This document shows positions 1 through 62,088 of a stretch of DNA of 64,000 bases, one piece after another. This stretch comes from Escherichia coli. Its GTDB lineage: Bacteria > Pseudomonadota > Gammaproteobacteria > Enterobacterales > Enterobacteriaceae. The translations under genes were made by a program, and so were the position numbers. The stretch lies in NCBI RefSeq assembly GCF_024502345.1, contig NZ_JALDNN010000001.1; one strand, given 5' to 3'. The number at the start of each line of letters is the position of its first letter. The stretch's first letter is position 1. The notes beneath the pieces were generated by a model. The model did not search any database and was not told the DNA's origin. It saw only the letters and a list, made by a program, of their open reading frames with translations.

Positions 1-644
1 TGACCGTGCATCGCAAGCTGAGCAATCAGCTTGGAGACGTGCTGAGGTGTGAAGAACTCCCCTCCAGACTTACCGGCATTTGCCGCATAGTTAGAAATCA
101 GGAACTCGTAGGCATCACCAAACAGGTCAATCTGGTGCTCGTTAAAATTCCCCAGGTTAAGCCCTTCAACGCCTTTCAGAACGGCGGCAAGACGGCTGTT
201 TTTGTCTTTAACTGTGTTACCCAGTCGATTGCTGGTCGTATCGAAATCGGCGAACAGGCCTTTGATGTCGGCCTCGGACGGATAGCCGTAGGCAGAGCTT
301 TCTATAGCGACGAAGATACTATTTAAATCAGCATTCAGCCTGTCGTTGGTGTTCGCTTTAGCGGCAACGTTGCAGAACAGCTGGCTCGGGTAGATGAAAT
401 AGCCTTTAGTCCTGATGGCATCGTCTTTGATGTCATCGGTAATGATGCTGTCATCAAGTGCTGCATAATGTATGCTCTCATCCCCTGCTTCCATGTAGCT
501 GGAAAAATTCTCACTGATGAAGCGGTAGAAAAGTGCACCGAGTACATACTGTTTAAAATCCCATCCATCTACTGAGCCCCTGACATCATTGGCAATGGCC
601 CAGATTTGACGGTGTAGCTCTGCACGCTGTTGAAGGCTTGTCAT
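1..644 (-). CDS. hsdM: Type I R-M DNA methyltransferase subunit HsdM, 5' portion only (gene runs off the window start)
   Basis: Minus-strand frame reads [15 protein letters not shown]...; near-identical at nucleotide level to 58480..59122 of the complete hsdM; start codon (cat on + strand) at 642..644. Confidence 0.85.
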
Positions 645-847
645 TTTGTATCCTGTTGTATGATTCTTAAGTACTGTTATTGGCCCGATTTTATCGCAAT
701 TTCATATGGATGACAGGCTTTGTATGTCATGCGTTGCACTGAGAGTTCGTTTGCCCGGTTGTGTAGCCAACACTCTTTCAGTCAGGCCAGTAGAAACGTT
801 GCGCTGACGATAAATACTGAAGCCCCAATACCATCGGGGCTGAACGT

Positions 848-2786: not shown

Positions 2787-3116
2787 CTAATTTATGCAAT
2801 GGAAAAGCTGACGGCTCGGTTTGTGTTTTTCATTCGGGTAGACTCGCATTGCGGATGCACAAAGTGATGAAACCTGTCTTGCTATATTTTTACCGAAGTT
2901 AACAAGAAGGCCGTGCTTTATTTTTTCACCCTCTGCCCTGATGCTGATGATAAAGCTGAACTGATATACGATTACCTCAATGAGGTCATTGCCAAATGTT
3001 ATAATGGCGGCGTTGTTTATTTCATGTTCATAATCCCTCAGGTCAGTGTTAAGTCTTGCTGTTGCATCTACAAGTGCGTATTCTTTATCGATAATCATAA
3101 CTTTCTCACTTATCAT
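2787..3116 (-). CDS. hypothetical protein (109 aa), paralog of 60147..60482
   Basis: ORF co-directional with and 40 bp downstream of the WYL regulator gene; conservative substitutions versus its paralog; no strong SD, and an overlapping + strand ORF exists, so strand assignment is tentative. Confidence 0.45.
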   Translation of the reverse strand: MISEKVMIIDKEYALVDATARLNTDLRDYEHEINNAAIITFGNDLIEVIVYQFSFIISIRAEGEKIKHGLLVNFGKNIARQVSSLCASAMRVYPNEKHKPSRQLFHCIN

Positions 3117-3156
3117 GTTAATGTGATTTAATCATCACTAATAATATGTTGTGATT

Positions 3157-3870
3157 TTAATTACGATTATTCGTCTGTTTACTCCCGTAATGCATTATCT
3201 TATGAATAATGTTCATGTGGGGTAAGGCTTCCATAAAGTCAGACTGTTCAATCAGCGAAATGAGTGTGTTATCGATCTCAAACGTTGTATCCGGTAATAC
3301 CTCAACCAGCCTGATTCGGGACAGGGAAATAACGAACACGCCCGATGACGTACATCCGGCAAGAAACCACTCCGCATGGCTGCAAAGCAGACGGTAGGGA
3401 TGAACGGTATGGCTGACGTTTTCGTCGGTTCTGATACGCACCTGGGTCTGGTTAAGTATGGCGAGCGTCAGTCTGCTGAAATCACCGAAAAGGGTGGGTT
3501 TCTGGCGCGGCTCCGGTAGCATAATCCTGTATGGCGAGGGACGTTCCCCGTCAAGCATCAGGCTCAGTAGTTTGGCATCCATCGCGGGTAACAGACGGTC
3601 AAGATGCAGCAACCTCGCCAGTATCTTCATATCCCGTTCCGTGCGGCGACGAAAGTAATGTGAGGCAAGCTGATACACGCCGTTGCTCTGTTCAATATCA
3701 AGGTAGGTCAGACGGACGTTGAAATCCCGTCGCAGCGTTCGCGTCGTCACTCCAAATTCTTCTGCCAGCGTCCCGATATGCAGCTTTTCACCCTGAAACA
3801 AACGGCTCAGGATGATGGAAAGGCGGGTTGCCAGTCTGTCATGTTCGTTTTCTTGTGTTATCAGCGTCAT
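3157..3870 (-). CDS. HTH-WYL domain transcriptional regulator (YfjR/BrxR-like architecture)
   Basis: 237 aa; N-terminal HTH (LAEEFGVTTRTLRRDF) and central W-x-L-type motif (HAEWFLAG); differs from paralog 60523..61236 at about 3 residues. Confidence 0.6.
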   Translation of the reverse strand: MTLITQENEHDRLATRLSIILSRLFQGEKLHIGTLAEEFGVTTRTLRRDFNVRLTYLDIEQSNGVYQLASHYFRRRTERDMKILARLLHLDRLLPAMDAKLLSLMLDGERPSPYRIMLPEPRQKPTLFGDFSRLTLAILNQTQVRIRTDENVSHTVHPYRLLCSHAEWFLAGCTSSGVFVISLSRIRLVEVLPDTTFEIDNTLISLIEQSDFMEALPHMNIIHKIMHYGSKQTNNRN

Positions 3871-3972
3871 ACATCATTTCCGAATTTAGCCGGGAAATGA
3901 TGCCAGCAGTAGCGGACAGGATTTGTCCGCCCTCTGAAGTTTTTTAAAGTCTGAATACCTTAAATGTAAGTG

Positions 3973-4288
3973 CTAAACGTCAGTATTCTCAGGTGAATAA
4001 AGATGCTTCTGGCGCATGTAGGCAATAAAAATGCAGGATGGTAGCGTCACCCGGTATGCGGGACCGGCTAAATCAATCAGCAGCCAGAGAGAACTGAGCA
4101 CCCAGCCCACGGGACCGGCAAAAGCGCCCATGGTACGCGTCAGCATGGCATTTCCTGCAACGGTCAGCCCTCTGCCTAACAGGGCTTTCGCCACACCATT
4201 TGTGACAACAAGTGCCATCTGATAGGCCGCAAACCCGGATGTTTTAATCCCCGCCTGGATTGCCATGGTCAGCAGCTCCGGCGTGGGA
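3973..4288 (-). pseudogene. 3' fragment of the 249-aa module protein (paralog of 61339..62088), truncated at a recombination junction
   Basis: Nucleotide homology to 61339..61660 ends abruptly near 4288; only the C-terminal ~100 codons remain. Confidence 0.6.
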
Positions 4289-4289
4289 T

Positions 4290-4562
4290 TGCTGTATCGC
4301 AGACGATACCGAGCAGGAGATACCAGCCATCATCAAGTGCGGTGACGTATTCCGGGTTAGCCAGTGCCACTGCCAGCAGCGGGTCTTCGGGGAGTGTGTC
4401 ATCGTGGTTGAGATGCCAGAGCAGGGTTCCCGTTTCGTTCCAGAAGGCGGTAAACAGGTCGATATCATCGACAGGGCCAAGGATTTCATTGCTGAGGGCC
4501 ACCAGTGCGGAGGCGGGCAGGTTGAGAAGGGGAAGACTGGTGGGAGTCGTGAGTTTAAACAT
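4290..4562 (-). pseudogene. 5' fragment of an unidentified gene fused to the junction at ~4288
   Basis: Start ATG at 4562 (MFKLTTPTSLPLLNLPASALVALSNEILGPVDD...); reading frame runs into the junction and ends in non-homologous sequence. Confidence 0.3.
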
Positions 4563-11572: not shown

Positions 11573-12629
11573 GGCTTTGTTGAATAAATCGAACTTTTGC
11601 TGAGTTGAAGGATCAGATCACGTATCTTCCCGACAACGCAGACCGTTCCGTGGCAAAGCAAAAGTTCAAAATCACCAACTGGCCCACCTACAATAAAGCC
11701 CTCATCAACCGTGGCTCCATAACTTTCTGGCTGGATGATGAAGCTATTCAGGCCTGGTATGAGTCAGCAACACCTTCTTCACGAGGCAGACCTCAGCGCT
11801 ATTCTGACCTTGCCATCACGACTGTGCTGGTCATTAAACGCGTATTCAGGCTGACCCTGCGCGCTGCGCAGGGCTTTATTGATTCCATTTTTTCTCTGAT
11901 GAACGTTCCGCTACGCTGCCCGGATTACAGCTGTGTCAGCAGGCGGGCAAAGTCGGTTAATGTCAGTTTCAAAACGCCCACCCGGGGTGAAATCGCACAC
12001 CTGGTAATTGATTCCACCGGGCTGAAGGTCTTCGGTGAAGGCGAGTGGAAAGTCAAAAAGCATGGCCAGGAACGCCGCCGTATCTGGCGTAAGCTGCATC
12101 TCGCCGTTGACAGTAAAACACATGAAATCATCTGCGCTGACCTGTCGCTGAACAACGTTACGGACTCAGAGGCCTTCCCCGGGTTAATCCGGCAAACCCA
12201 CCGGAAAATCAGGTCAGCCGCCGCCGATGGCGCTTACGATACCCGGCTATGTCACGATGAACTGCGGCGTAAGAAAATCAGCGCGCTTATCCCTCCCCGA
12301 AAAGGTGCGGGTTACTGGCCCGGTGAATATGCAGACCGTAACCGTGCAGTGGCTAATCAGCGAATGACCGGGAGTAATGCGCGGTGGAAATGGACAACAG
12401 ATTACAACCGTCGCTCGATAGCGGAAACGGCGATGTACCGGGTAAAACAGCTGTTCGGGGGTTCACTGACACTGCGTGACTACGATGGTCAGGTTGCAGA
12501 GGCTATGGCCCTGGTACGAGCGCTGAACAAAATGACGAAAGCAGGTATGCCTGAAAGCGTGCGTATTGCCTGAAAACACAACCCGCTACGGGGGAGACTT
12601 ACCCGAAATCTGATTTATTCAACAAAGCC
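11573..12629 (+). mobile_element. IS903-group insertion sequence (IS5 family), 1057 bp
   Basis: Terminal inverted repeats GGCTTTGTTGAATAAATCG at 11573 and its complement ending at 12629; internal sequence matches recalled IS903; flanking 9-mers differ (no target-site duplication). Confidence 0.9.
11605..12573 (+). CDS. IS903 transposase
   Basis: 322-codon ORF filling the element; DDE transposase of the IS903/IS102 type; ORF track start is a TTG codon. Confidence 0.9.
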   Translation: MKDQITYLPDNADRSVAKQKFKITNWPTYNKALINRGSITFWLDDEAIQAWYESATPSSRGRPQRYSDLAITTVLVIKRVFRLTLRAAQGFIDSIFSLMNVPLRCPDYSCVSRRAKSVNVSFKTPTRGEIAHLVIDSTGLKVFGEGEWKVKKHGQERRRIWRKLHLAVDSKTHEIICADLSLNNVTDSEAFPGLIRQTHRKIRSAAADGAYDTRLCHDELRRKKISALIPPRKGAGYWPGEYADRNRAVANQRMTGSNARWKWTTDYNRRSIAETAMYRVKQLFGGSLTLRDYDGQVAEAMALVRALNKMTKAGMPESVRIA

Positions 12630-13024
12630 ACTGTGTTTATCAAATTCCATGCCCTTTTTGCTGCTTAATTTTAAATGACACTCTGATCATGCACCGTGAT
12701 TGAAATAAGTTATAGCCACCCCTTAATCATTTTTTTCAGACGACATTAACTTCGGAGTAAATAATTTAACACAATGAAATATCAAACCGCATCTGGCCTG
12801 AATGTTGAGTATTAATACGTGACGGATTGTTAATATATATCAGTACATAAACCCCAATATTCCAGTAATACACACCTACACAATACACACCAAGCAATTT
12901 AGTCAGCATCACCCAACTAACATCCAACACAAACTCAATAAGCCAGATTTGATACCACCTAATTACCTCAACCATCGCGGGTAAGGTTCCGTCCTGCCCG
13001 ATATTCAGATCACAGGAATCTATT

Positions 13025-27024: not shown

Positions 27025-27281
27025 ACCATTGTCAACCCCGTCAAATTCGCGGCAATCGAATTTGACGACATAGTGACCAAAAAGGTTTGCACCGCCCCGG
27101 GAACGGAACGAGGCAACAGACTTTACGATTTGTCGGCGCTGACTAAAATAGCGCCGATGTTTCAAATCGAGGATTGTTGTTATGTTGTTCTGGAAAAAGA
27201 TGGTGAAGAAGTTCGACGCCTTTTCCGGTGATGCTGCCAACTTACTGATTTAGTGTATGATGGTGTTTTTGAGGTGCTCCA

Positions 27282-27557
27282 GTGGCTTCTGTTTCTATCA
27301 GCTGTCCCTCCTGTTCAGCTACTGACGGGGTGGTGCGTAACGGCAAAAGCACCGCCGGACATCAGCGCTATCTCTGCTCTCACTGCCGTAAAACATGGCA
27401 ACTGCAGTTCACTTACACCGCTTCTCAACCCGGTACGCACCAGAAAATCATTGATATGGCCATGAATGGCGTTGGATGCCGGGCAACCGCCCGCATTATG
27501 GGCGTTGGCCTCAACACGATTTTCCGCCATTTAAAAAACTCAGGCCGCAGTCGGTAA
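27282..27557 (+). CDS. insA: IS1 InsA
   Basis: 91 aa, [39 protein letters not shown]... Confidence 0.9.
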
Positions 27558-27979
27558 CCTCGCGCATACAGCCGGGCAGTGACGTCATCGTCTGCGCGGA
27601 AATGGACGAACAGTGGGGATACGTCGGGGCTAAATCGCGCCAGCGCTGGCTGTTTTACGCGTATGACAGGCTCCGGAAGACGGTTGTTGCGCACGTATTC
27701 GGTGAACGCACTATGGCGACGCTGGGGCGTCTTATGAGCCTGCTGTCACCCTTTGACGTGGTGATATGGATGACGGATGGCTGGCCGCTGTATGAATCCC
27801 GCCTGAAGGGAAAGCTGCACGTAATCAGCAAGCGATATACGCAGCGAATTGAGCGGCATAACCTGAATCTGAGGCAGCACCTGGCACGGCTGGGACGGAA
27901 GTCGCTGTCGTTCTCAAAATCGGTGGAGCTGCATGACAAAGTCATCGGGCATTATCTGAACATAAAACACTATCAATAA
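27476..27979 (+). CDS. insB: IS1 InsB (expressed as InsAB' fusion by -1 frameshift)
   Basis: 167-aa ORF overlapping the insA 3' end in the -1 frame. Confidence 0.85.
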
Positions 27980-28253
27980 GTTGGAGTCATTACCGACCGG
28001 GTTAAACCGGAAATGCGACACCTCGGAAGTGTCTCCTGAAAACCTTTCATCAGTACGCTCATCATGCTGTTCATAGAGTAGTCCAAATACAGTACCGTAC
28101 AGTACGGTACGTTTTATATCTTGACTTCTGAGCGCCGTCAAATGAAAATGTACTCGTCAGTACGATTACGAACCCTACTATCTGACGTGATTCCGAAATC
28201 TGAGAACAAAAAGTGTTGGCCCCGGCCAGACACCTAAACTAACGAGGAAACAT

Positions 28254-32452: not shown

Positions 32453-32815
32453 CAGTCAGTCCTGGTTACTAAGAAACTGTGTCGACTATAGAACTGATTG
32501 TGAGAATTACCAACCTTGCGCCGGGTAGCGGCTGCGCCTTAACCGTCCTGCGGGCAGTGTTGCGGTATGAATCCGCTCTTCGCGGATACCACTTTCGACT
32601 GACCGAAGATCGCCTTTTCCCGCACCATGCTGTAAGTATCTGCTTGCGGAGGTGCTTATGGCCTGGCGTCCGATTCTCTATGTGATCCTCACGACCCACC
32701 CCAGACTCAGCGCGAGGCGTGCCCGTTTGCGTCTGGTCATCTAGCTTTTTATTAACAATCGCGGTATAACACACCTTCTTTGGATGTTTAGATGTCCATA
32801 CGTATAGAAGGTAAT

Positions 32816-34216
32816 ATGCAAACACAACAAGAAAATGGGCAGCTTAAGCGCACCATGAAAACACGCCACCTGATTATGCTCTCGCTGGGTGGCGTGATTG
32901 GGACAGGGTTATTCTTCAATACCGGATACATCATTTCAACCACCGGGGCGGCGGGCACGCTGCTGGCGTACCTGATAGGCGCGCTGGTGGTCTGGCTGGT
33001 GATGCAGTGTCTGGGCGAGCTTTCCGTGGCGATGCCGGAAACCGGCGCGTTCCACGTCTATGCCGCCCGCTATCTTGGCCCGGCGACGGGCTACACCGTG
33101 GCGTGGCTCTACTGGCTCACCTGGACGGTGGCGCTCGGCTCCAGCTTTACCGCCGCCGGGTTCTGCATGCAGTACTGGTTCCCCCAGGTGCCGGTCTGGG
33201 CCTGGTGCGTGGTCTTCTGCGTGGTGATTTTTGGCCTGAACGTCATCTCTACGCGCTTCTTTGCGGAAGGCGAATTCTGGTTCTCTCTGGTCAAAGTCAT
33301 CACCATTATCGCCTTTATTATTCTTGGCGGCGCGGCGGTCTTTGGCTTTATCCCTATGCAGGACGGTTCACCCGCGCCGGGCTTAAGCAACATCACCGCC
33401 GAGGGCTGGTTCCCGCACGGCGGCCTGCCGATCCTGATGACCATGGTGGCGGTGAACTTTGCCTTCTCCGGGACGGAGCTCATCGGCATCGCGGCGGGGG
33501 AAACGGAAAATCCGCACAAGGTGATTCCGGTTGCGATCCGCACCACCATTGCGCGCCTGATTATCTTCTTTATCGGCACCGTGTTTGTGCTGGCGGCGCT
33601 GATCCCGATGCAGCAGGCGGGCGTGGAAAAGAGCCCGTTCGTGCTGGTGTTTGAAAAGGTCGGTATTCCTTACGCGGCGGATATTTTTAACTTTGTGATC
33701 CTGACGGCGATCCTCTCGGCGGCGAACTCGGGCCTGTACGCTTCCGGGCGCATGCTGTGGTCGCTATCGAATGAGAAAACGCTGCCGCGCTGCTTTGCCC
33801 GCGTGAACAAAAACGGCGTGCCGCTGACGGCGCTCTCGGTCTCTATGCTCGGCGGCGTGCTGGCGCTGTTCTCAAGCGTCGTGGCCCCGGACACGGTGTT
33901 TGTCGCGCTCTCGGCGATTTCTGGCTTTGCGGTGGTGGCGGTGTGGATCAGCATCTGCGCGTCGCACTTCGTTTTCCGCCGCCGTCATCTGCAGTCCGGG
34001 CAGCCGCTCTCTGCGCTGCAGTACCGCGCGCCGTGGTATCCGCTGGTGCCGGTGCTTGGTTTTATCCTCTGCGTGGTGGCCTGTGTCGGCCTGTGGTTTG
34101 ACCCGAGCCAGCGCATTGCCCTTTATTGCGGGCTTCCGTTTGTCGCCCTGTGTTATGGTGCGTACTACCTGACCCGAAATATGACATCGCAGGAGCCTGA
34201 ACATGTCGCAGAATAA
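32816..34216 (+). CDS. mmuP: S-methylmethionine permease (APC family)
   Basis: Start placed at [34 protein letters not shown] with AGAAGG SD; followed by and overlapping mmuM. Confidence 0.8.
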
Positions 34217-46581: not shown

Positions 46582-47067
46582 CAGGATGAGGTGCACACTC
46601 TGGTATGGGTGTCACCTGCCAGAAAAAGCATTGACCTTCGAGCGTATTTCGCCGATAAACAGGGATCCGCCTCATGAGCGGGTCTGAATGCTAACGTTTC
46701 TCTACATCCTTCCCGGTGCCTTTGCCGGGTTTTTTACATCTGTAGTCTCGTTTTCTGGAAAATATTCGTTTCCCTGCCATAATCATAGCAGGCAGCCATT
46801 TGCCGGGCGGCATCGGGTATGCCGTCAGATACCTGAAATTCCTGATAGTGTAGTTTTACGGGCGGCTCCGCCCGTTTTTTTTGTCTTCCCGGAAGGGGGC
46901 ATTTAAAGTGGTGCTATGCATAATACGCAGGTTCGCTAACACCTGTGCAGGTGTTGTTATTAACCATAAGGCCTCTACGCGCACCGCTCAGAAGGCCTGA
47001 GAGCGTTTCAGCGGTACGCGTAGAGGCCTTATGGTAAATAGCCTATGCTAATGTCCGCTAAGAGCTG

Positions 47068-47336
47068 TGAGTTCAACTGATGGACGCAACACACTTATTG
47101 AACCGTTCTGCGGGTGATTCATAGTCTAGGCTTTTTCTCGGCCTTTCGTTGAGCTGTCTGGCAACACTGTTAAGTCTTTGCTGGCTGTGAACCGATAAGT
47201 CAGTTCCTTTTGAAAATACTGCCTGAGCAATCTGTTTGTATTTTCATTGGAGCCGCGTTGCCAGGGGGATTGAGGATGGCAGAAGTAAACCTGAATATCT
47301 GTGGCTACAGTAAACTGTTGTGGTCAACTAAAACTG
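47068..47336 (-). mobile_element. remnant of a diverged IS30-family element (terminal repeat plus transposase 3' part)
   Basis: About 70% nucleotide similarity to the 3' region and terminus of the intact IS30 at 47650..48871; interrupted at ~47337. Confidence 0.45.
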
Positions 47337-47649
47337 GCCACCTGAACAGAGGTGATATGCTCACCTCAGAACAACACAGGTGCCATAATGAAAAAAAGAA
47401 ATTTCAGCGCAGAGTTTAAACGCGAATCCGCTCAACTGGTCGTTGACCAGAATTACACCGTGGCAGATGCAGCCAGCGCTATGGATGTCGGCCTTTCCAC
47501 AATGACGCGATGGGTGAAACAATTACGTGATGAGCGGCAGGGAAAAACACCAAAAGCCTCCCCCATTACCCCGGAACAAATTGAAATCCGTGAGCTCAGG
47601 AAAAAGCTACAACGTATTGAAATGGAAAATGAAATATTAAAAAAGGCTA
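47337..47649 (+). mobile_element. IS911-like (IS3 family) 5' fragment with partial orfA
   Basis: Left-end-like sequence GGCCACCTGAACAGAGGTGATATGCTCACC and orfA N-terminus [43 protein letters not shown]; cut at 47649 by IS30. Confidence 0.65.
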
Positions 47650-49517
<1,868 letters not shown>

Positions 49518-49616
49518 TATTACTGTCGCCTGTAAATAACCGGCACAGTGCGAACACCATGCCGGGAGATTATGGCTGACAAAACGGGAACGACAGGATC
49601 CCGCTGTTGTCGGGGG

Positions 49617-50013
49617 TCAGAAGGTTTCCCAGTTCTCGCTGGCGTGTTGTTCCGTTTCACGAACGGACTTTACCGCTTTAACCTTACTCTGCGGGCTGGT
49701 GTTGCTGATTGTCGGTACTATGGTATTTTTTCGTTCAGCATCGCGTTTTTTATTATCACGGAGACGAAATACGCTCACCTTCTCCTGCAGAATCCGTGAC
49801 TGATTCTGCAACGAAGCGGCAGTGGCTGCAGACTGTTCCACCAGAGCTGCATTTTGTTGGGTGGTGCTGTCTATCTGGCCCACGGCGCTGTTAATCTGGG
49901 CAATACCATCTCCCTGCTCACGACTGGCCTTGGCTATTTCGTCAATCAGCCCTTCCATGCTCTGGACGTTACTGATGATATCCTCCATTCCCCTGTCTGC
50001 TTTTTCAACCAGG
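49617..50013 (-). pseudogene. methyl-accepting chemotaxis protein, 3' fragment truncated by IS1
   Basis: Encodes the MCP signalling-domain C-terminus ending in the CheR-docking pentapeptide NWETF; upstream part replaced by IS1. Confidence 0.7.
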
Positions 50014-50689
50014 GTACTGACGGGGTGGTGCGTAACGGCAAAAGCACTGCCGGACATCAGCGCTATCTCTGCTCTCACTGCCGTAAAACATGGCAACTGC
50101 AGTTCACTTACACCGCTTCTCAACCCGGTACGCACCAGAAAATCATTGATATGGCCATGAATGGCGTTGGATGCCGGGCAACCGCCCGCATTATGGGCGT
50201 TGGCCTCAACACGATTTTCCGCCATTTAAAAAACTCAGGCCGCAGTCGGTAACCTCGCGCATACAGCCGGGCAGTGACGTCATCGTCTGCGCGGAAATGG
50301 ACGAACAGTGGGGATACGTCGGGGCTAAATCGCGCCAGCGCTGGCTGTTTTACGCGTATGACAGGCTCCGGAAGACGGTTGTTGCGCACGTCTTCGGTGA
50401 ACGCACTCTGGCCACACTGGAGCGTCTTCTGAGCCTGCTGTCGGCCTTTGAGGTCGTGGTATGGATGACGGATGGCTGGCCGCTGTATGAATCACGCCTG
50501 AAGGGAAAGCTGCACGTTATCAGCAAGCGTTACACTCAGCGCATTGAGCGACATAATCTGAATCTGAGACAATATCTGGCAAGGCTGGGACGGAAGTCAC
50601 TGTCGTTCTCAAAATCGGTGGAGCTGCATGACAAGGTCATCGGGCATTATCTGAACATAAAACACTATCAGTAAGTTGGAGTCATTACC
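50014..50689 (+). mobile_element. IS1, 5'-truncated copy (lacks left inverted repeat and start of insA)
   Basis: Match to IS1 begins inside insA (TACTGACGGGGTGGTGCGTAACGG) and continues to the right end ...GAGTCATTACC at 50689. Confidence 0.85.
50171..50674 (+). CDS. insB: IS1 InsB
   Basis: 167 aa, a few substitutions relative to the 27476..27979 copy. Confidence 0.85.
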
Positions 50690-50781
50690 CGGAGTAACTT
50701 GTCAGAAACATCAATCTTCGTCATCATTTCAAAGAAAAATAATTAGTTAAAGCAGTCCGGGCTGATTGCCCGGACTGCTTA

Positions 50782-52044
50782 CTATTTTAATGGATTGTTA
50801 ATCTTTGCATATTCAAACGGACTGATACCCTTCTCCCGGTTCGCATCCAGAAAATCGGCCCACCATTGCAACATCAGTCGCCGTTCTTCCAGATGTTCTG
50901 CTTTATGGATATACGCAGCACGTACACCATTACGCTCCTGATGGCTCATCTGACGTTCCACAGCATCGCGGGACCACAAACCTGATTCAATCAATGCACT
51001 GCACGCCATCGCCCGGAATCCATGGCCACAGACTTCCTGGGTTGTGTCATACCCCATCACCCTCAGGGCTTTATTTACAGTATTTTCACTGATTGGTTTA
51101 CGCGGGTCATGTGCACCCGTAAATATCAGACCATTTTCACCTGCCCATGTCTGAAGTTCTGTCAGTATGGCTACAGCCTGTTTGCTGAGTGGCACAAGAT
51201 GTGGTGTTCGCATCTTGGAGCCCCGGTGTGAGAATTTTACGCCGGGCAGAGGTTCGCGTTCGGCTGGAATAGTCCACATGGCATTGTCAATATCAATTTC
51301 AGACCACCGGGCGTATCTGAGTTCACTGGAACGAATAAAAACCAGTAAATTCAGCGTAACGGCAAGCTGGGTGACAGGTTGCCCCTTGTAACTGCTAATA
51401 CGCGACAAAAGTTCAGGCAGGCGAGAAAGATCAAGAGCGGGGCGATGCTGGCGTTTTACAGTGGTCAATGCGCCAGCCATATCCAGAGCAGGATTATATC
51501 TGATGATGCCAGACTGTACGGCATAACGCATTACAGCAGATATTCTTTGCTGCAGACGACTGGCGATTTCATAAATTTGTTTAGCTTCTGCGGCACGAAC
51601 AGGGATAAGCAGGTCCGGGGTACGGAGTGTTGTGATATCCCGGTTGCCGATAAAGGGGAAAACGTGTGTCTCGAGGCTTTTGAGTACTTTATCGCTGTGT
51701 GATTGTGCCCATTGTTTATTACTGGCATGCCAGCGTCGTGCAATATGTTCAAAAGAGAGTTGTAAATCAGGGACTACTTTTTTAGCTCTTTTTTGTTCGC
51801 AAGGGTCAACCCCCTCCGAAATCAGTTTTCGGGCCTCATCCCGTTTTGTACGAGCTTCGGAGAGAGAAACTTCCGGATACACACCAAGTGCCAGGGTTTT
51901 CTCCTTACCCAGAATACGATAACGGAGACGCCAGTAACGGGAACCATTAGGATGAACCAGCAGGAACATGCCGGCCCCGTCAGTGAGTTTATAAGCCTTG
52001 TCAGTGGGCTTTGCAGCCCGGATTTTTGCGTCAGTCAGTGCCAT
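50782..52044 (-). CDS. P4-type tyrosine integrase (tRNA-associated genomic island integrase)
   Basis: 420 aa, MALTDAKIRAAKPTDKAYKLTDGAGMFLLV... N-terminal arm-binding domain and catalytic R..HGFR..Y core; adjacent to a tRNA-Phe 3' fragment. Confidence 0.85.
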   Translation of the reverse strand: MALTDAKIRAAKPTDKAYKLTDGAGMFLLVHPNGSRYWRLRYRILGKEKTLALGVYPEVSLSEARTKRDEARKLISEGVDPCEQKRAKKVVPDLQLSFEHIARRWHASNKQWAQSHSDKVLKSLETHVFPFIGNRDITTLRTPDLLIPVRAAEAKQIYEIASRLQQRISAVMRYAVQSGIIRYNPALDMAGALTTVKRQHRPALDLSRLPELLSRISSYKGQPVTQLAVTLNLLVFIRSSELRYARWSEIDIDNAMWTIPAEREPLPGVKFSHRGSKMRTPHLVPLSKQAVAILTELQTWAGENGLIFTGAHDPRKPISENTVNKALRVMGYDTTQEVCGHGFRAMACSALIESGLWSRDAVERQMSHQERNGVRAAYIHKAEHLEERRLMLQWWADFLDANREKGISPFEYAKINNPLK

Positions 52045-52241
52045 AGTTCAGCCTTCTGAATGCGTTAAAGAGGGTACAAATTCTGTCGAACTGGGGTATA
52101 CCCGCAATTATACCCACACAATGGGGTTGATGTGGGGGGAATCTGGTTGAGTTCGGTAGAATTGATTTGGAGGCAGAACGCTTAAATTGTGGCGTTCTGA
52201 AACGAAAAACGGACCTCCGTGGAGGTCCGTTGATATGAATT

Positions 52242-52290
52242 TGGTGCCCGGACTCGGAATCGAACCAAGGACACGGGGATTTTCAATCCC
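52242..52290 (-). repeat. 3'-terminal 49 nt of tRNA-Phe (island attachment-site repeat), not a complete tRNA gene
   Basis: Minus strand reads GGGATTGAAAATCCCCGTGTCCTTGGTTCGATTCCGAGTCCGGGCACCA, matching the anticodon-loop-to-CCA part of recalled E. coli tRNA-Phe; match stops abruptly at 52290. Confidence 0.75.
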
Positions 52291-52567: not shown

Positions 52568-52906
52568 CTAAAATAGCCGAGCAGCAAACGCCAAAACAAC
52601 AATACTGACATTACCATTAACTGTCGCGATAGTTCTGAGTCGGTCGTCTTTCAGGGTTTTACCGTCAAATGTTGCGATGGTGCGGAGTCGATCGTCTTTC
52701 AGGGTCTTTCCATCAAAGGTAGCGATGGTGCGGAGTCGGTCGTCTTTCAGGGTTTTACCGTCAAAAGTTGCGATGGTTCTGAGCCGGTCGTCTTTCAGGG
52801 TTTTACCGTCAAACGTTGCGATGGTCCTGAGTCGATCATCTTTCAAGGTCTTGCCATCAAAGGTCGCGATAGTCCTGAGTCGATCGTCTTTTATAGTTAC
52901 GCTCAT
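52568..52906 (-). CDS. tandem-repeat protein: five identical 16-aa units (KDDRLRTIATFDGKTL) plus a degenerate sixth
   Basis: 48-bp DNA units differ from each other only at synonymous positions; AGGAGA SD before the second ATG; about 215 bp downstream of hsdR on the same strand. Confidence 0.6.
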   Translation of the reverse strand: MSVTIKDDRLRTIATFDGKTLKDDRLRTIATFDGKTLKDDRLRTIATFDGKTLKDDRLRTIATFDGKTLKDDRLRTIATFDGKTLKDDRLRTIATVNGNVSIVVLAFAARLF

Positions 52907-57569: not shown

Positions 57570-59122
57570 GCCTGCGCCTCGTAGCCTTCAATTTCTGCCA
57601 CAATCGCATCAATGTCTTTGCGTAACTGGTCGATTTTGCTGACCGTGGTTTTAAGCTCAACATTCAGTTCGGTGATATCGACGATTTCACGGGTATCTTT
57701 TGCTTCGACGTAGCTACTGACAGACAGATTGTAGTCATTACCAGCAACAGTCTCTAATGGCACCGTTTTCGCCAGATGGTCAGTATCTGCCTTACTGTTG
57801 AACACATCCATAATCTGCTTAATATGACCATCAGTCAGGATATTGTTATTGGTTTCTTTCTTAAACAACCCGCTGGCGTCAATAAACTGAACGCGGGTAT
57901 CTGTTTTGTGCTTGGACAACACTAGTATGTTAACGGCAATGGTGGTGCCGAAGAACAGATTTGGTGCCAGAGAAATCACCGTTTCAACATAGTTGTTGTC
58001 GACCAGGTACTGGCGGATTTTCTGCTCTGCTCCGCCACGGTAGAAAATACCGGGGAAGCAAACTATTGCTGCACGCCCTTTAGCTGACAGGTAGTTTAGT
58101 GCATGTAGCACAAACGCAAAGTCAGCTTTTGATTTCGGGGCCAGTACGCCAGCAGGAGCAAAGCGCTCATCGTTAATCAGGGTCGGATCATCACTACCAA
58201 TCCACTTAACCGAGTACGGTGGGTTAGAAACAATCGCATCGAACGGTTTTTCATCGCCAAAGTGAGGCTCAGTCAGGGTATTCCCCAACCTGATATCAAA
58301 CTTATCGTAGTTGATGTTGTGCAGGAACATATTCATACGCGCCAGGTTAAACGTCGTATGATTTATCTCTTGTCCGAAAAAACCTTCTTCAATGATATGA
58401 TTATCAAAGTGCTTCTTCGCCTGAAGCAGCAGTGAGCCAGAGCCTGCGGCAGGGTCATAGATTTTGTTGACGTGAGTCTGACCATGCATCGCAAGCTGAG
58501 CAATCAGCTTAGAGACGTGCTGTGGTGTGAAGAACTCCCCGCCAGACTTACCGGCATTCGCCGCATAGTTTGAAATCAGGAACTCGTAGGCATCACCGAA
58601 AAGGTCAATCTGGTGCTCATTAAAATCCCCGAGCTTTAGCCCCTCAACGCCTTTCAGAACGGCAGCGAGGCGGCTGTTTTTGTCTTTGACGGTGTTACCC
58701 AGTCGATTGCTGGTCGTATCGAAATCGGCAAACAGACCTTTGATGTCGGCCTCAGACGGATAGCCGTAGGCAGAGCTTTCAATAGCGACGAAGATACTGT
58801 TTAAATCAGCATTCAGCCTGTCGTTGGTGTTCGCTTTAGCGGCAACGTTGCAGAACAGCTGGCTCGGATAGATGAAATAGCCTTTAGTCCTGATGGCATC
58901 ATCTTTGATGTCATCGGTAATGATGCTGTCATCAAGTGCTGCATAATGTATGCTCTCATCCCCTGCTTCCATGTAGCTGGAAAAATTCTCACTGATGAAG
59001 CGGTAGAAAAGGGCACCGAGTACATACTGTTTAAAATCCCATCCATCTACTGAGCCCCTGACATCATTGGCAATGGCCCAGATTTGACGGTGTAGTTCTG
59101 CACGTTGTTGAAGACTGGTCAT
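57566..59122 (-). CDS. hsdM: Type I R-M N6-adenine DNA methyltransferase subunit
   Basis: 518 aa; catalytic NPPY motif (SNPPYS) and AdoMet-binding region [10 protein letters not shown]. Confidence 0.9.
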
Positions 59123-59710
59123 TTTTATCCTGTTATCGATTCTTGGTTTCGGCTATTGCTGCGATTTTATCGCAATTTTACTTCTTTGACAGGTTTGAGT
59201 GATGCCTGATAGCCTCCCCAATGAAGGTTAAAATGGTTAATGAAATGTACAGAGAATCAATCGGATATGCTGTTTCGATTTCTGGAGCATCATTAGCGGT
59301 GTTTAGGGGCAGTTCATTACATTTCTGACCTTGTATAGATATGCCGTGATGAAATAAACGTTCACAGCCATCATCTGATCGGTGTGCAACAAAGGCGTCA
59401 TTCATTAAATACGCAGAGAGCCTGACTTATTGCGTCAACGGGTGAGTTACAATGTTGAATCTGGTAACGCCAAAACTGTGTAATTATCTACGCTAAATCA
59501 TTTCTGGTTAGCGTGACCGACGCCGGCGGTCTTAAGATGTACAATTCTTACTGTCTCCGAATGAATTTTATTTATTCAAACAGACTTGGGTGATATTATT
59601 ATCAAGTGAAAATGCCTGTTACCTACCTTGATGATATATACAGTGTTTTTACAGATGAATTTATATGTTTGTAATCAATGCGTGAGTTTGATGTTTTTAA
59701 GGTTAGTTAA

Positions 59711-60146: not shown

Positions 60147-60482
60147 TTATACTGCTGTTATGCATCTAAAAAGCTGACGGCTTTGTTTATGTTTTATGTT
60201 CGGATAGATTCTCATCGCAGCTGCACAGAGAGGTGAAACCTGCCTTGCTATATTTTTACCAAAGTTAACAAGAAGACCATGCTTGATCTTTTCACTATTC
60301 GTTCTGACTTTGATGACAAAGCTGAACTGATATACGATTACCTCAATGAGGTCATTGCCAAATGTTATACTGGCAGCGTTGTTTATTTCATGTTCATAAT
60401 TCCTCAGGTCAGTGTTAAGTCTTGCTGTTGCATCTACAAGTGCGTATTCTTTATCGATAATCATAACTTTCTCACTTATCAT
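60147..60482 (-). CDS. hypothetical protein (111 aa), paralog of 2787..3116
   Basis: Last gene of the module operon; conservative substitutions versus its paralog. Confidence 0.45.
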   Translation of the reverse strand: MISEKVMIIDKEYALVDATARLNTDLRNYEHEINNAASITFGNDLIEVIVYQFSFVIKVRTNSEKIKHGLLVNFGKNIARQVSPLCAAAMRIYPNIKHKQSRQLFRCITAV

Positions 60483-60522
60483 GTTAATGTGATTTAATCA
60501 TCACTAATAATATGTTGTGATT

Positions 60523-61236
60523 TTAATTGCGATTATTCGGTTGTTTTGCCCCGTAATGCATTATCTGATGAATAATGTTCATGTGGGGTAAGGCTTCCAT
60601 AAAGTCAGACTGTTCAATCAGCGAAATGAGTGTGTTATCGATCTCAAACGTTGTATCCGGTAATACCTCAACCAGCCTGATTCGGGACAGGGAAATAACG
60701 AACACGCCCGATGACGTACATCCGGCAAGAAACCACTCCGCATGGCTGCAAAGCAGACGGTAGGGATGAACGGTATGGCTGACGTTTTCGTCGGTTCTGA
60801 TACGCACCTGGGTCTGGTTAAGTATGGCGAGCGTCAGTCTGCTGAAATCACCGAAAAGGGTGGGTTTCTGGCGCGGCTCCGGTAGCATAATCCTGTATGG
60901 CGAGGGACGTTCCCCGTCAAGCATCAGGCTCAGTAGTTTGGCATCCATCGCGGGTAACAGACGGTCAAGATGCAGCAACCTCGCCAGTATCTTCATATCC
61001 CGTTCCGTGCGGCGACGAAAGTAATGTGAGGCAAGCTGATACACGCCGTTGCTCTGTTCAATATCAAGGTAGGTCAGACGGACGTTGAAATCCCGTCGCA
61101 GCGTTCGCGTCGTCACTCCAAATTCTTCTGCCAGCGTCCCGATATGCAGCTTTTCACCCTGAAACAAACGGCTCAGGATGATGGAAAGGCGGGTTGCCAG
61201 TCTGTCATGTTCGTTTTCTTGTGTTATCAGCGTCAT
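60523..61236 (-). CDS. HTH-WYL domain transcriptional regulator (paralog of 3157..3870)
   Basis: 237 aa; same motifs as the left-hand copy. Confidence 0.6.
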   Translation of the reverse strand: MTLITQENEHDRLATRLSIILSRLFQGEKLHIGTLAEEFGVTTRTLRRDFNVRLTYLDIEQSNGVYQLASHYFRRRTERDMKILARLLHLDRLLPAMDAKLLSLMLDGERPSPYRIMLPEPRQKPTLFGDFSRLTLAILNQTQVRIRTDENVSHTVHPYRLLCSHAEWFLAGCTSSGVFVISLSRIRLVEVLPDTTFEIDNTLISLIEQSDFMEALPHMNIIHQIMHYGAKQPNNRN

Positions 61237-61338
61237 ACATCATTTCCGAATTTAGCCGGGAAATGATGCCAGCAGTAGCGGACAGGATTTGTCCGCCCTC
61301 TGAAGTTTTTTAAAGTCTGAATACCTTAAATGTAAGTG

Positions 61339-62088
61339 CTAAACGTCAGTATTCTCAGGTGAATAAAGATGCTTCTGGCGCATGTAGGCAATAAAAATGC
61401 AGGATGGTAGCGTCACCCGGTATGCGGGACCGGCTAAATCAATCAGCAGCCAGAGAGAACTGAGCACCCAGCCCACGGGACCGGCAAAAGCGCCCATGGT
61501 ACGCGTCAGCATGGCATTTCCTGCAACGGTCAGCCCTCTGCCTAACAGGGCTTTCGCCACACCATTTGTGACAACAAGTGCCATCTGATAGGCCGCAAAC
61601 CCGGATGTTTTAATCCCCGCCTGGATTGCCATGGTCAGCAGCTCCGGCGTGGGATTGCTGTAGCCTGTCTGCAATTCTTCCGCCACGGTCTTTAGCTGAG
61701 CGGGTGTCATCTTCTCAAGGCTTTTCTCCAGGATCTTCATCAGCAGATTCATTTCAATGGTTTCAACACTGGATTTGCTGTTGTAGTTCACCTTCATTTT
61801 ATCGCAGGCATCGGTAAGAATTTCCCGGTACAGCACCCCTTTACCCCAGCGGAGCAGCGTGGCAAAGCTGTTCGCCCCAAACGTCTGAACTTCGGCGGCA
61901 ATGGCATCCCAGTAGCGCGGGTGGTTGGGCTTGTGTTTTTTATACTGAGGATCATAGGTCAGCGTTTCCGTGATGCGTGCCAGTCCGTCTTTCGGATCGC
62001 AGATAAGCACAGAAACCAGTAAATCCAGATCGTCACGATGACAGTGGCGCAGAAACTCAAGGTCGGGGTCGTGTCGGTAGGTAGCCAT
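61339..62088 (-). CDS. hypothetical protein (249 aa) with Gly/Ala-rich hydrophobic C-terminal segment
   Basis: GAGGTGA SD; C-terminus ...GVAKALLGRGLTVAGNAMLTRTMGAFAGPVGWVLSSLWLLIDLAGPAY looks membrane-associated; first gene of the module. Confidence 0.55.
   Translation of the reverse strand: MATYRHDPDLEFLRHCHRDDLDLLVSVLICDPKDGLARITETLTYDPQYKKHKPNHPRYWDAIAAEVQTFGANSFATLLRWGKGVLYREILTDACDKMKVNYNSKSSVETIEMNLLMKILEKSLEKMTPAQLKTVAEELQTGYSNPTPELLTMAIQAGIKTSGFAAYQMALVVTNGVAKALLGRGLTVAGNAMLTRTMGAFAGPVGWVLSSLWLLIDLAGPAYRVTLPSCIFIAYMRQKHLYSPENTDV

Follow-up and report, generated by a model that had tools for sequence, protein, structure and literature searches.

[quoted passage not shown] It lies within a 64-kb stretch of DNA (64,000 nucleotides) that was analysed over its full length and will be referred to as the window. 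According to the mechanism we propose, an IS1 copy would have been resident beside the integrase gene of the island, with the MCP module further inside and next to IS30. A single RecA-independent illegitimate-recombination event using a 3-bp microhomology would then have joined MCP codon 428/429 to IS1 position 94, thereby removing 428 MCP codons (the 5' 1284 nt), the first 93 bp of IS1 and the cargo between them. The features on which this reading is based are compiled in Table 1.

Table 1. Features at and around the junction between the MCP gene and IS1 (window coordinates).
Feature	Position	Strand	Basis or remark
IS30	47651..48871	minus	99.8% identical to K-12 IS30A
5' orfA fragment of IS3-family element	48872..49216	minus	NCBIfam transpos_IS3; also in loci L001 and L005-L007
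Intact 105-aa hypothetical gene	49200..49517	minus	Next to the MCP gene in 10/10 loci examined
Terminator-like hairpin, 11 pairs and T-rich tail	49540..49565	minus	Consensus scan
Accessory MCP gene remnant	49617..50017	minus	tblastn, DNA match, alignments to Tsr/Tar/Tap and PDB 6s1k
Chimeric 146-aa ORF	49620..50057	minus	14 antisense IS1 codons and 132 MCP codons
Microhomology TAC, common to both parents	50015..50017		Three-way alignment of window, L021 and L018
IS1 remnant, IS1 positions 94-768	50015..50689	plus	Pfam, alignment to complete IS1 copies
P4-type tyrosine integrase of the island	50782..52044	minus	NCBIfam NF007246; DNA 100% identical to L018
3' 49 nt of tRNA-Phe, attachment-site copy	52242..52290	minus	Sequence read

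The MCP remnant and its parent gene

Searching the window by tblastn with a full-length MCP (WP_082261904.1, locus L002) yielded one sole match at 50015-49620, which corresponds to residues 429-560 of the query with 131 of 132 residues identical (99.2% identity, E = 1e-79). The remnant comprises codons 429-560 of a 560-aa MCP followed by the stop codon (49617-49619), and translation of the minus strand from 49617 to 50015 gives 132 residues ending in ...HASENWETF and then the stop. On the DNA level the match to the parent extends to 50017, with 400 of 401 nt identical to three parental copies; the sole difference is a C in place of T at 49883, which changes Met to Val. A 693-bp ENA contig carrying the same Val allele ends short of the junction. 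An earlier note on this DNA had described an MCP gene cut down to about 130 codons with an NWETF end, and this description was confirmed by both the protein and the DNA match; the end coordinate given there, 50013, lies within 4 nt of the true junction (50015-50017). The absence of the remaining gene from the adjacent upstream DNA, which the note had also claimed, was verified: the sequence upstream of codon 429 is IS1, and tblastn with the full-length protein detected no other piece of the MCP gene in the whole 64-kb window.

In Pfam searches the remnant covered the last 53 MCPsignal positions (profile 119-171 of 172), and its score of 30 bits stays below the cutoff of 34.6 because only a fragment is present. 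It aligns to Tsr residues 433-551 in solved structures (PDB 6s1k, E = 8e-18). Retained are the C-terminal signalling helix, starting below the tip of the hairpin at the equivalent of Tsr 433 and amounting to one hairpin arm, methylation helix 2, a tail or linker of 46 residues following the helix and, at the C-terminal end, the NWETF pentapeptide, which is the CheR/CheB binding site and tether of Tsr and Tar (PMC7390727). At the positions equivalent to the Tsr methylation sites E493 and E502, the retained methylation helix 2 has Gln residues. The first residue of the remnant is equivalent to Tsr 433 and is located past the kinase-control tip (Tsr E391); the signalling hairpin is therefore incomplete in that both the tip and methylation helix 1 are missing, and of the N-terminal module both transmembrane segments, the sensor and the HAMP domain are gone. 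Derivation from an MCP, in the sense of Pfam PF00015 and the enteric 36-heptad type, is nevertheless clearly demonstrated by the near-identity to intact MCPs with 4HB_MCP_1, HAMP and MCPsignal domains.

Identification of the parent by BLAST, as the earlier note had proposed, led to a rare accessory MCP of 560 aa, which combines 4HB_MCP_1, HAMP and MCPsignal with a C-terminal NWETF and shows 36-37% identity to K-12 Tsr, Tar and Tap over the whole protein. When the parent was tested against the NCBIfam equivalogs of Tsr/Tar/Tcp/Tap (NF011615, NF011622, NF047851, NF007309), it reached 327 bits for NF011615 (cutoff 947), 326 bits for NF011622 (cutoff 900), 319 bits for NF047851 (cutoff 900) and 296 bits for NF007309 (cutoff 903). 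As these scores are far under the equivalog cutoffs, the parent is none of Tsr, Tar, Trg and Tap. Within the retained helix 40-44 of 86 residues are identical to Tsr/Tar. The tail had previously been called unlike that of Tsr and Tar; this holds, as identity is restricted to 8-12 of 33 aligned tail positions, mostly those of the pentapeptide.

A megablast search with the remnant located the parent gene in 15 of 5426 complete E. coli genomes, in 11 of these on plasmids; all matches were at least 99% identical, and all of them ended at window position 50017. Among the 72,556 plasmids of PLSDB, 34 carry the gene at 90% identity or more, the remaining plasmid matches all being below 60%, and the carriers belong chiefly to Citrobacter but also to Klebsiella, Enterobacter, Serratia and E. 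coli. Besides the pheV island of E. coli 2273-PO3, plasmids and other genera carry intact copies as well, and the copies are always found amid IS26, IS66, IS30, IS110 and IS1 on plasmids and islands. The parent is thus an accessory, mobile-element-borne receptor and not a core chemoreceptor of E. coli, and the former description of the event as loss of a chemoreceptor does not suit a gene found in 15 genomes and 34 plasmids. The near-perfect identity to intact copies would show that either the event or the acquisition is recent.

The terminator-like hairpin located 52 nt downstream of the MCP stop codon also occurs in the parental loci and is the native 3' end of the parent gene. For the 105-aa protein encoded next to it, no match was obtained in Pfam, NCBIfam or PHROGs. 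In one further locus (L013, 6001-6318) the 105-aa gene lies downstream of a different MCP, which is 38% identical and has a TarH-type sensor and an NWETF end; the 105-aa protein may be a conserved partner of pentapeptide-bearing receptors. The IS3-family element beyond this gene is interrupted by IS30 and belongs to the module that accompanies the MCP, and the left end of IS30 (~47650) marks the left limit of homology to other MCP-module loci. IS30 itself is flanked (window 47320-49216) by orfA fragments in head-to-head orientation, which derive from two distinct IS3-family elements, one IS911A-like and located on the plus strand, the other located on the minus strand, and which both break off after ...ILKKAT. 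The same arrangement of IS30 within orfA is present in many E. coli plasmids and chromosomes, and it suggests either a hot spot for IS30 or the product of an old IS30 x IS30 inversion.

The junction and the IS1 remnant

To define the junction, the window was aligned jointly with an intact MCP gene (L021) and an intact IS1 (L018). With the break marked by a slash, the MCP side reads ...CAGGGTAC/GGCCGG and the IS1 side ...CAGCTAC/TGACGG, and the window sequence across the join is CAGGGTACTGACGG. The break is located at position 94 within IS1 and at codon 428/429 of the MCP, and the alignment revealed neither an IS1 inverted repeat nor a target duplication at the join. Insertion of IS1, or an adjacent deletion promoted by its transposase, would leave an IS1 terminus at the join. 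The break was inspected for such a terminus and does not coincide with one; since it is found at position 94, neither IS1 insertion nor transposase-mediated adjacent deletion can account for it. The 3-bp overlap is weakly non-random, as by our own estimate approximately 5% of random joins would reach 3 bp or more.

The exact 29-nt junction string had no match in the GTDB species-representative genomes, a junction-spanning query was not covered to 80% or more at any place in PLSDB (72,556 plasmids), and the junction was absent from 5426 complete E. coli genomes. As it was not found in these three datasets, and as the chimeric ORF occurs on a single contig, the allele looks private and recent.

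The stump had been reported to adjoin a 5'-truncated IS1, and indeed the element at 50015-50689 lacks its first 93 bp and with them the left inverted repeat and the beginning of insA, which starts at IS1 position 56 in complete copies and has lost about 13 codons here. The C-terminal part of InsA, an intact InsB of 167 aa and the A6C frameshift motif (50226) are kept, and the right inverted repeat is intact at 50667-50689. Pfam matches were obtained for DDE_Tnp_IS1 (248.6 bits), HTH_Tnp_IS1 (104 bits) and Zn_ribbon_InsA. By its coding regions, the A6C motif and the right inverted repeat the element is clearly an IS1, whereas the left inverted repeat and the complete insA gene of a mobile copy are missing.

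Compared with other copies, the remnant is 95.7% identical to IS1B and, over positions 94-768, 100% identical to the IS1 of L018. It is a mosaic, which matches IS1B perfectly from position 94 to ~468 and the divergent IS1 of E. coli G3/10 from ~469 to 768; the copies at window 50015-50689, window 27227-27994 and L004 8908-9675 are likewise mosaics of each other. This mosaicism indicates recombination or gene conversion between variants in the past, and it is older than the truncation. The possibility that the MCP/IS1 junction was formed elsewhere and imported by IS1 x IS1 recombination was dropped despite the mosaic remnant, because many genomes contain the same mosaic sequence at this site as a full-length IS1.

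The island and the origin of the truncation

At least 14 complete E. coli genomes contain, at 100% identity, the stretch of 1286 nt that consists of the IS1 remnant and its flank into the integrase gene. In the pheU island of E. coli 2273-PO3 (L018), IS1 is full length at 11908-12675, with the same integrase (WP_001218854.1) on one side and part of a second integrase gene on the other; the former adjoins the complete pheU tRNA-Phe and dicD/dsbD. Window 46647-48411 and window 50015-52290 are 100% identical to L018 1-1765 and 12001-14276, respectively, and window 27227-47752, which also holds an IS5-family element, is collinear with the 2273-PO3 island at 99.8-99.97%. Between the two identical blocks the window contains 1.6 kb, namely the rest of IS30, the IS3-family orfA fragment, the 105-aa gene and the MCP stump, whereas L018 contains 10.2 kb with an IS66 remnant, an HNH gene, IS3, a group II intron, IS110, a capsid-like gene cluster, the integrase fragment and IS1 positions 1-93. 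In L018 an IS66 terminus abuts the inside of IS30 with unrelated flanks and without a target duplication, and this sister island appears to have lost the MCP module by a different, IS66-associated rearrangement.

In the window, IS1 lies 92 bp beyond the integrase stop codon, and the tRNA-Phe fragment forms the integrase-proximal end of the island holding the remnant. The match with the complete pheU tRNA of 2273-PO3 breaks off within the tRNA, and no complete tRNA was detected in the window using ARAGORN. The fragment has the integrase-bearing island to its left and an island for type I restriction (hsdRSM) to its right, and it looks like the shared attachment site of two tandem islands. The cargo at 32792-46536 includes mmuPM, tauABCD, an olsF-like ornithine-lipid synthase gene, hemB and an AIDA-type autotransporter gene. 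It is 99.97% identical to the pheU island of 2273-PO3, with 82% identity to K-12 in the mmuP region, and it represents second, foreign copies of housekeeping-like genes and not a decayed core region.

Several further observations were made along the window. At 45483-45555, a small indel associated with a repeat distinguishes the autotransporter gene from that of 2273-PO3. A 48-bp tandem repeat with 5.9 copies and 84% matches is present at 52611-52891 within a gene annotated elsewhere as '5-fold beta-flower protein', and it encodes repeated KDDRLRTIATFDGKTL units. Window 1-702 and 2803-4296 are 94-97% identical to 58479-59178 and 60169-61662; the segments at both window ends have their counterpart in the hsd-island region of E. 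coli G3/10 (hsdM end, HTH regulator) and are a partial duplication of island DNA approximately 57 kb apart.

The earlier note had attributed the reduction of the MCP gene to IS1. In favour of this view, the stump directly adjoins IS1 sequence, and IS elements interrupt the same gene elsewhere, as with IS66 in ABWA45, where an 8-bp target duplication is present, while IS26 or IS66 are located beside other truncated copies. Nevertheless, transposition of IS1 into the MCP gene followed by a deletion of the 5' part of the gene together with the left end of IS1 is very unlikely. From the right end of IS1 to the integrase the sequence is 100% identical to that of genomes with a complete IS1, and in those genomes the left flank of IS1 is the integrase-gene fragment and not the MCP; hence IS1 occupied this position beforehand, some 10 kb away from the MCP module. 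A join at an internal IS1 position, with the terminal repeat and target duplication both lacking, also argues against such an order of events. Since IS1 is full length at the same site in at least 14 genomes, it would have been a resident element clipped by the same event as the MCP gene, and its transposition does not appear to have been the cutter. With the adjacency correct and the agent mistaken, the earlier interpretation as a whole is partly supported. That the ancestral MCP gene had already been interrupted by IS66 as in ABWA45 was also considered and found no support, because the IS66 of L018 has unrelated flanks and no target duplication.

Relatives carry two islands that have modules of IS30, an IS3-family element, a group II intron and IS66 in common, and in 2273-PO3 an intact MCP is located in the pheV island. 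Moreover, the stump segment is bounded on its left by IS30, and the perfect match to L018 ends inside this element. This might be explained by recombination with a second MCP locus on a pheV island or plasmid, involving one homologous crossover within IS30 in addition to the illegitimate MCP/IS1 join; alternatively, an inversion or translocation would have placed the reciprocal fusion of MCP codons 1-428 with IS1 positions 93-1 at another chromosomal site. We regard an origin of this kind as rather unlikely, as the second-locus version needs two exchanges in comparison to one, neither a reciprocal junction nor a second MCP piece is present in the window, and the junction is missing from the 72,556 plasmids, the 5426 complete E. 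coli genomes and the GTDB species representatives alike. Inversion of an order as found in L005 (MCP-hyp-IS30-...-IS1-int) was rejected; the integrase region of L005 is only 73% identical and belongs to a different island. Finally, IS1 is a multicopy element with a median of 11 places per genome, and only one contig is known to carry the exact chimeric ORF, as might be expected if the junction were an assembly artefact caused by a chimeric join at a repeated element. However, misjoins normally fall at repeat boundaries or switch copies and do not fall at internal position 94, and both sides of the join are otherwise perfect matches to real loci, which makes an artefact highly improbable.

Returning to the single illegitimate-recombination event between the MCP gene and the resident IS1, this was probably a deletion of roughly 10 kb or more, a size which assumes that the cargo of the ancestor resembled that of 2273-PO3, L018 itself being rearranged.

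The chimeric reading frame and comparison with known chemoreceptor genes

The 146-aa ORF running across the join has been called by NCBI's pipeline as a 'hypothetical protein' of Escherichia coli (WP_256632868.1 / MCQ7033487.1), and an exact-sequence look-up found it on one 4.74-Mb E. coli contig only. The native start of the gene is lost, and the sole start candidate for the stump is an ATG at 50057 inside antisense IS1, which is accompanied by a weak GAGA-type Shine-Dalgarno-like motif. A consensus scan detected no promoter-like site within 500 nt on the strand of the stump, and promoter-like sites in the region were not in excess over shuffled controls. Taking start codon, ribosome-binding site and promoter together, the sequence features do not amount to an expressible gene, and the stump is presumably a non-functional pseudogene remnant without expression. 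Transcription of the ORF from antisense IS1, resulting in a soluble methylation-helix-2/NWETF peptide that titrates CheR and phospho-CheB away from Tsr/Tar arrays, is conceivable in principle and deserves next to no credence; if true, the titration by the 146-aa peptide would shift adaptation and motility behaviour. We suggest that the annotation WP_256632868.1 should be treated as a pseudogene artefact in which an MCP tail is fused to antisense IS1. Regarding the core chemotaxis genes of the strain, the window is uninformative.

The stump represents ordinary gene decay of an already known kind, a textbook outcome in IS-dense islands. It provides a small and clean example of how illegitimate recombination whittles down the cargo genes of IS-rich islands, and demonstrates that a neighbouring IS is not automatically to blame for a truncation.

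The closest known counterpart is the intact 560-aa accessory MCP (WP_082261904.1 / WP_103216115.1 / WP_061351512.1 type), of which the remnant represents residues 429-560 and whose loci share the terminator, the 105-aa gene and the IS30-interrupted IS3-family element with the window. In contrast to this protein, the window copy is devoid of codons 1-428, encoding TM1, the 4HB sensor, TM2, HAMP, methylation helix 1 and the tip, and has one Met-to-Val change. The C-terminal NWETF is common to the remnant and E. coli Tsr/Tar, from which the parent differs by its 4HB_MCP_1 sensor, a longer, unrelated tail (46 residues after the helix) and its accessory status. Chemoreceptor-like cargo of mobile DNA in Enterobacteriaceae has been described before with the mcp gene of Tn1721/Tn1722, which is MCP-like and forms part of a Tn3-family transposon (PMC7096625). 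As points of difference, all plasmid matches apart from the 34 near-identical copies are below 60% identity, and no Tn3-family tnpA, tnpR or res was found beside the parent gene in the loci examined. Other truncated copies of the parent gene (ABWA45; the 394-436-aa proteins WP_158661220.1 and CAH3948991.1) have likewise lost their 5' side in IS-rich surroundings and kept NWETF. In those copies the break is at an IS terminus or close to the 5' end, so that most of the signalling domain survives, whereas the window copy, the shortest truncated copy seen here, has its break away from any IS terminus.
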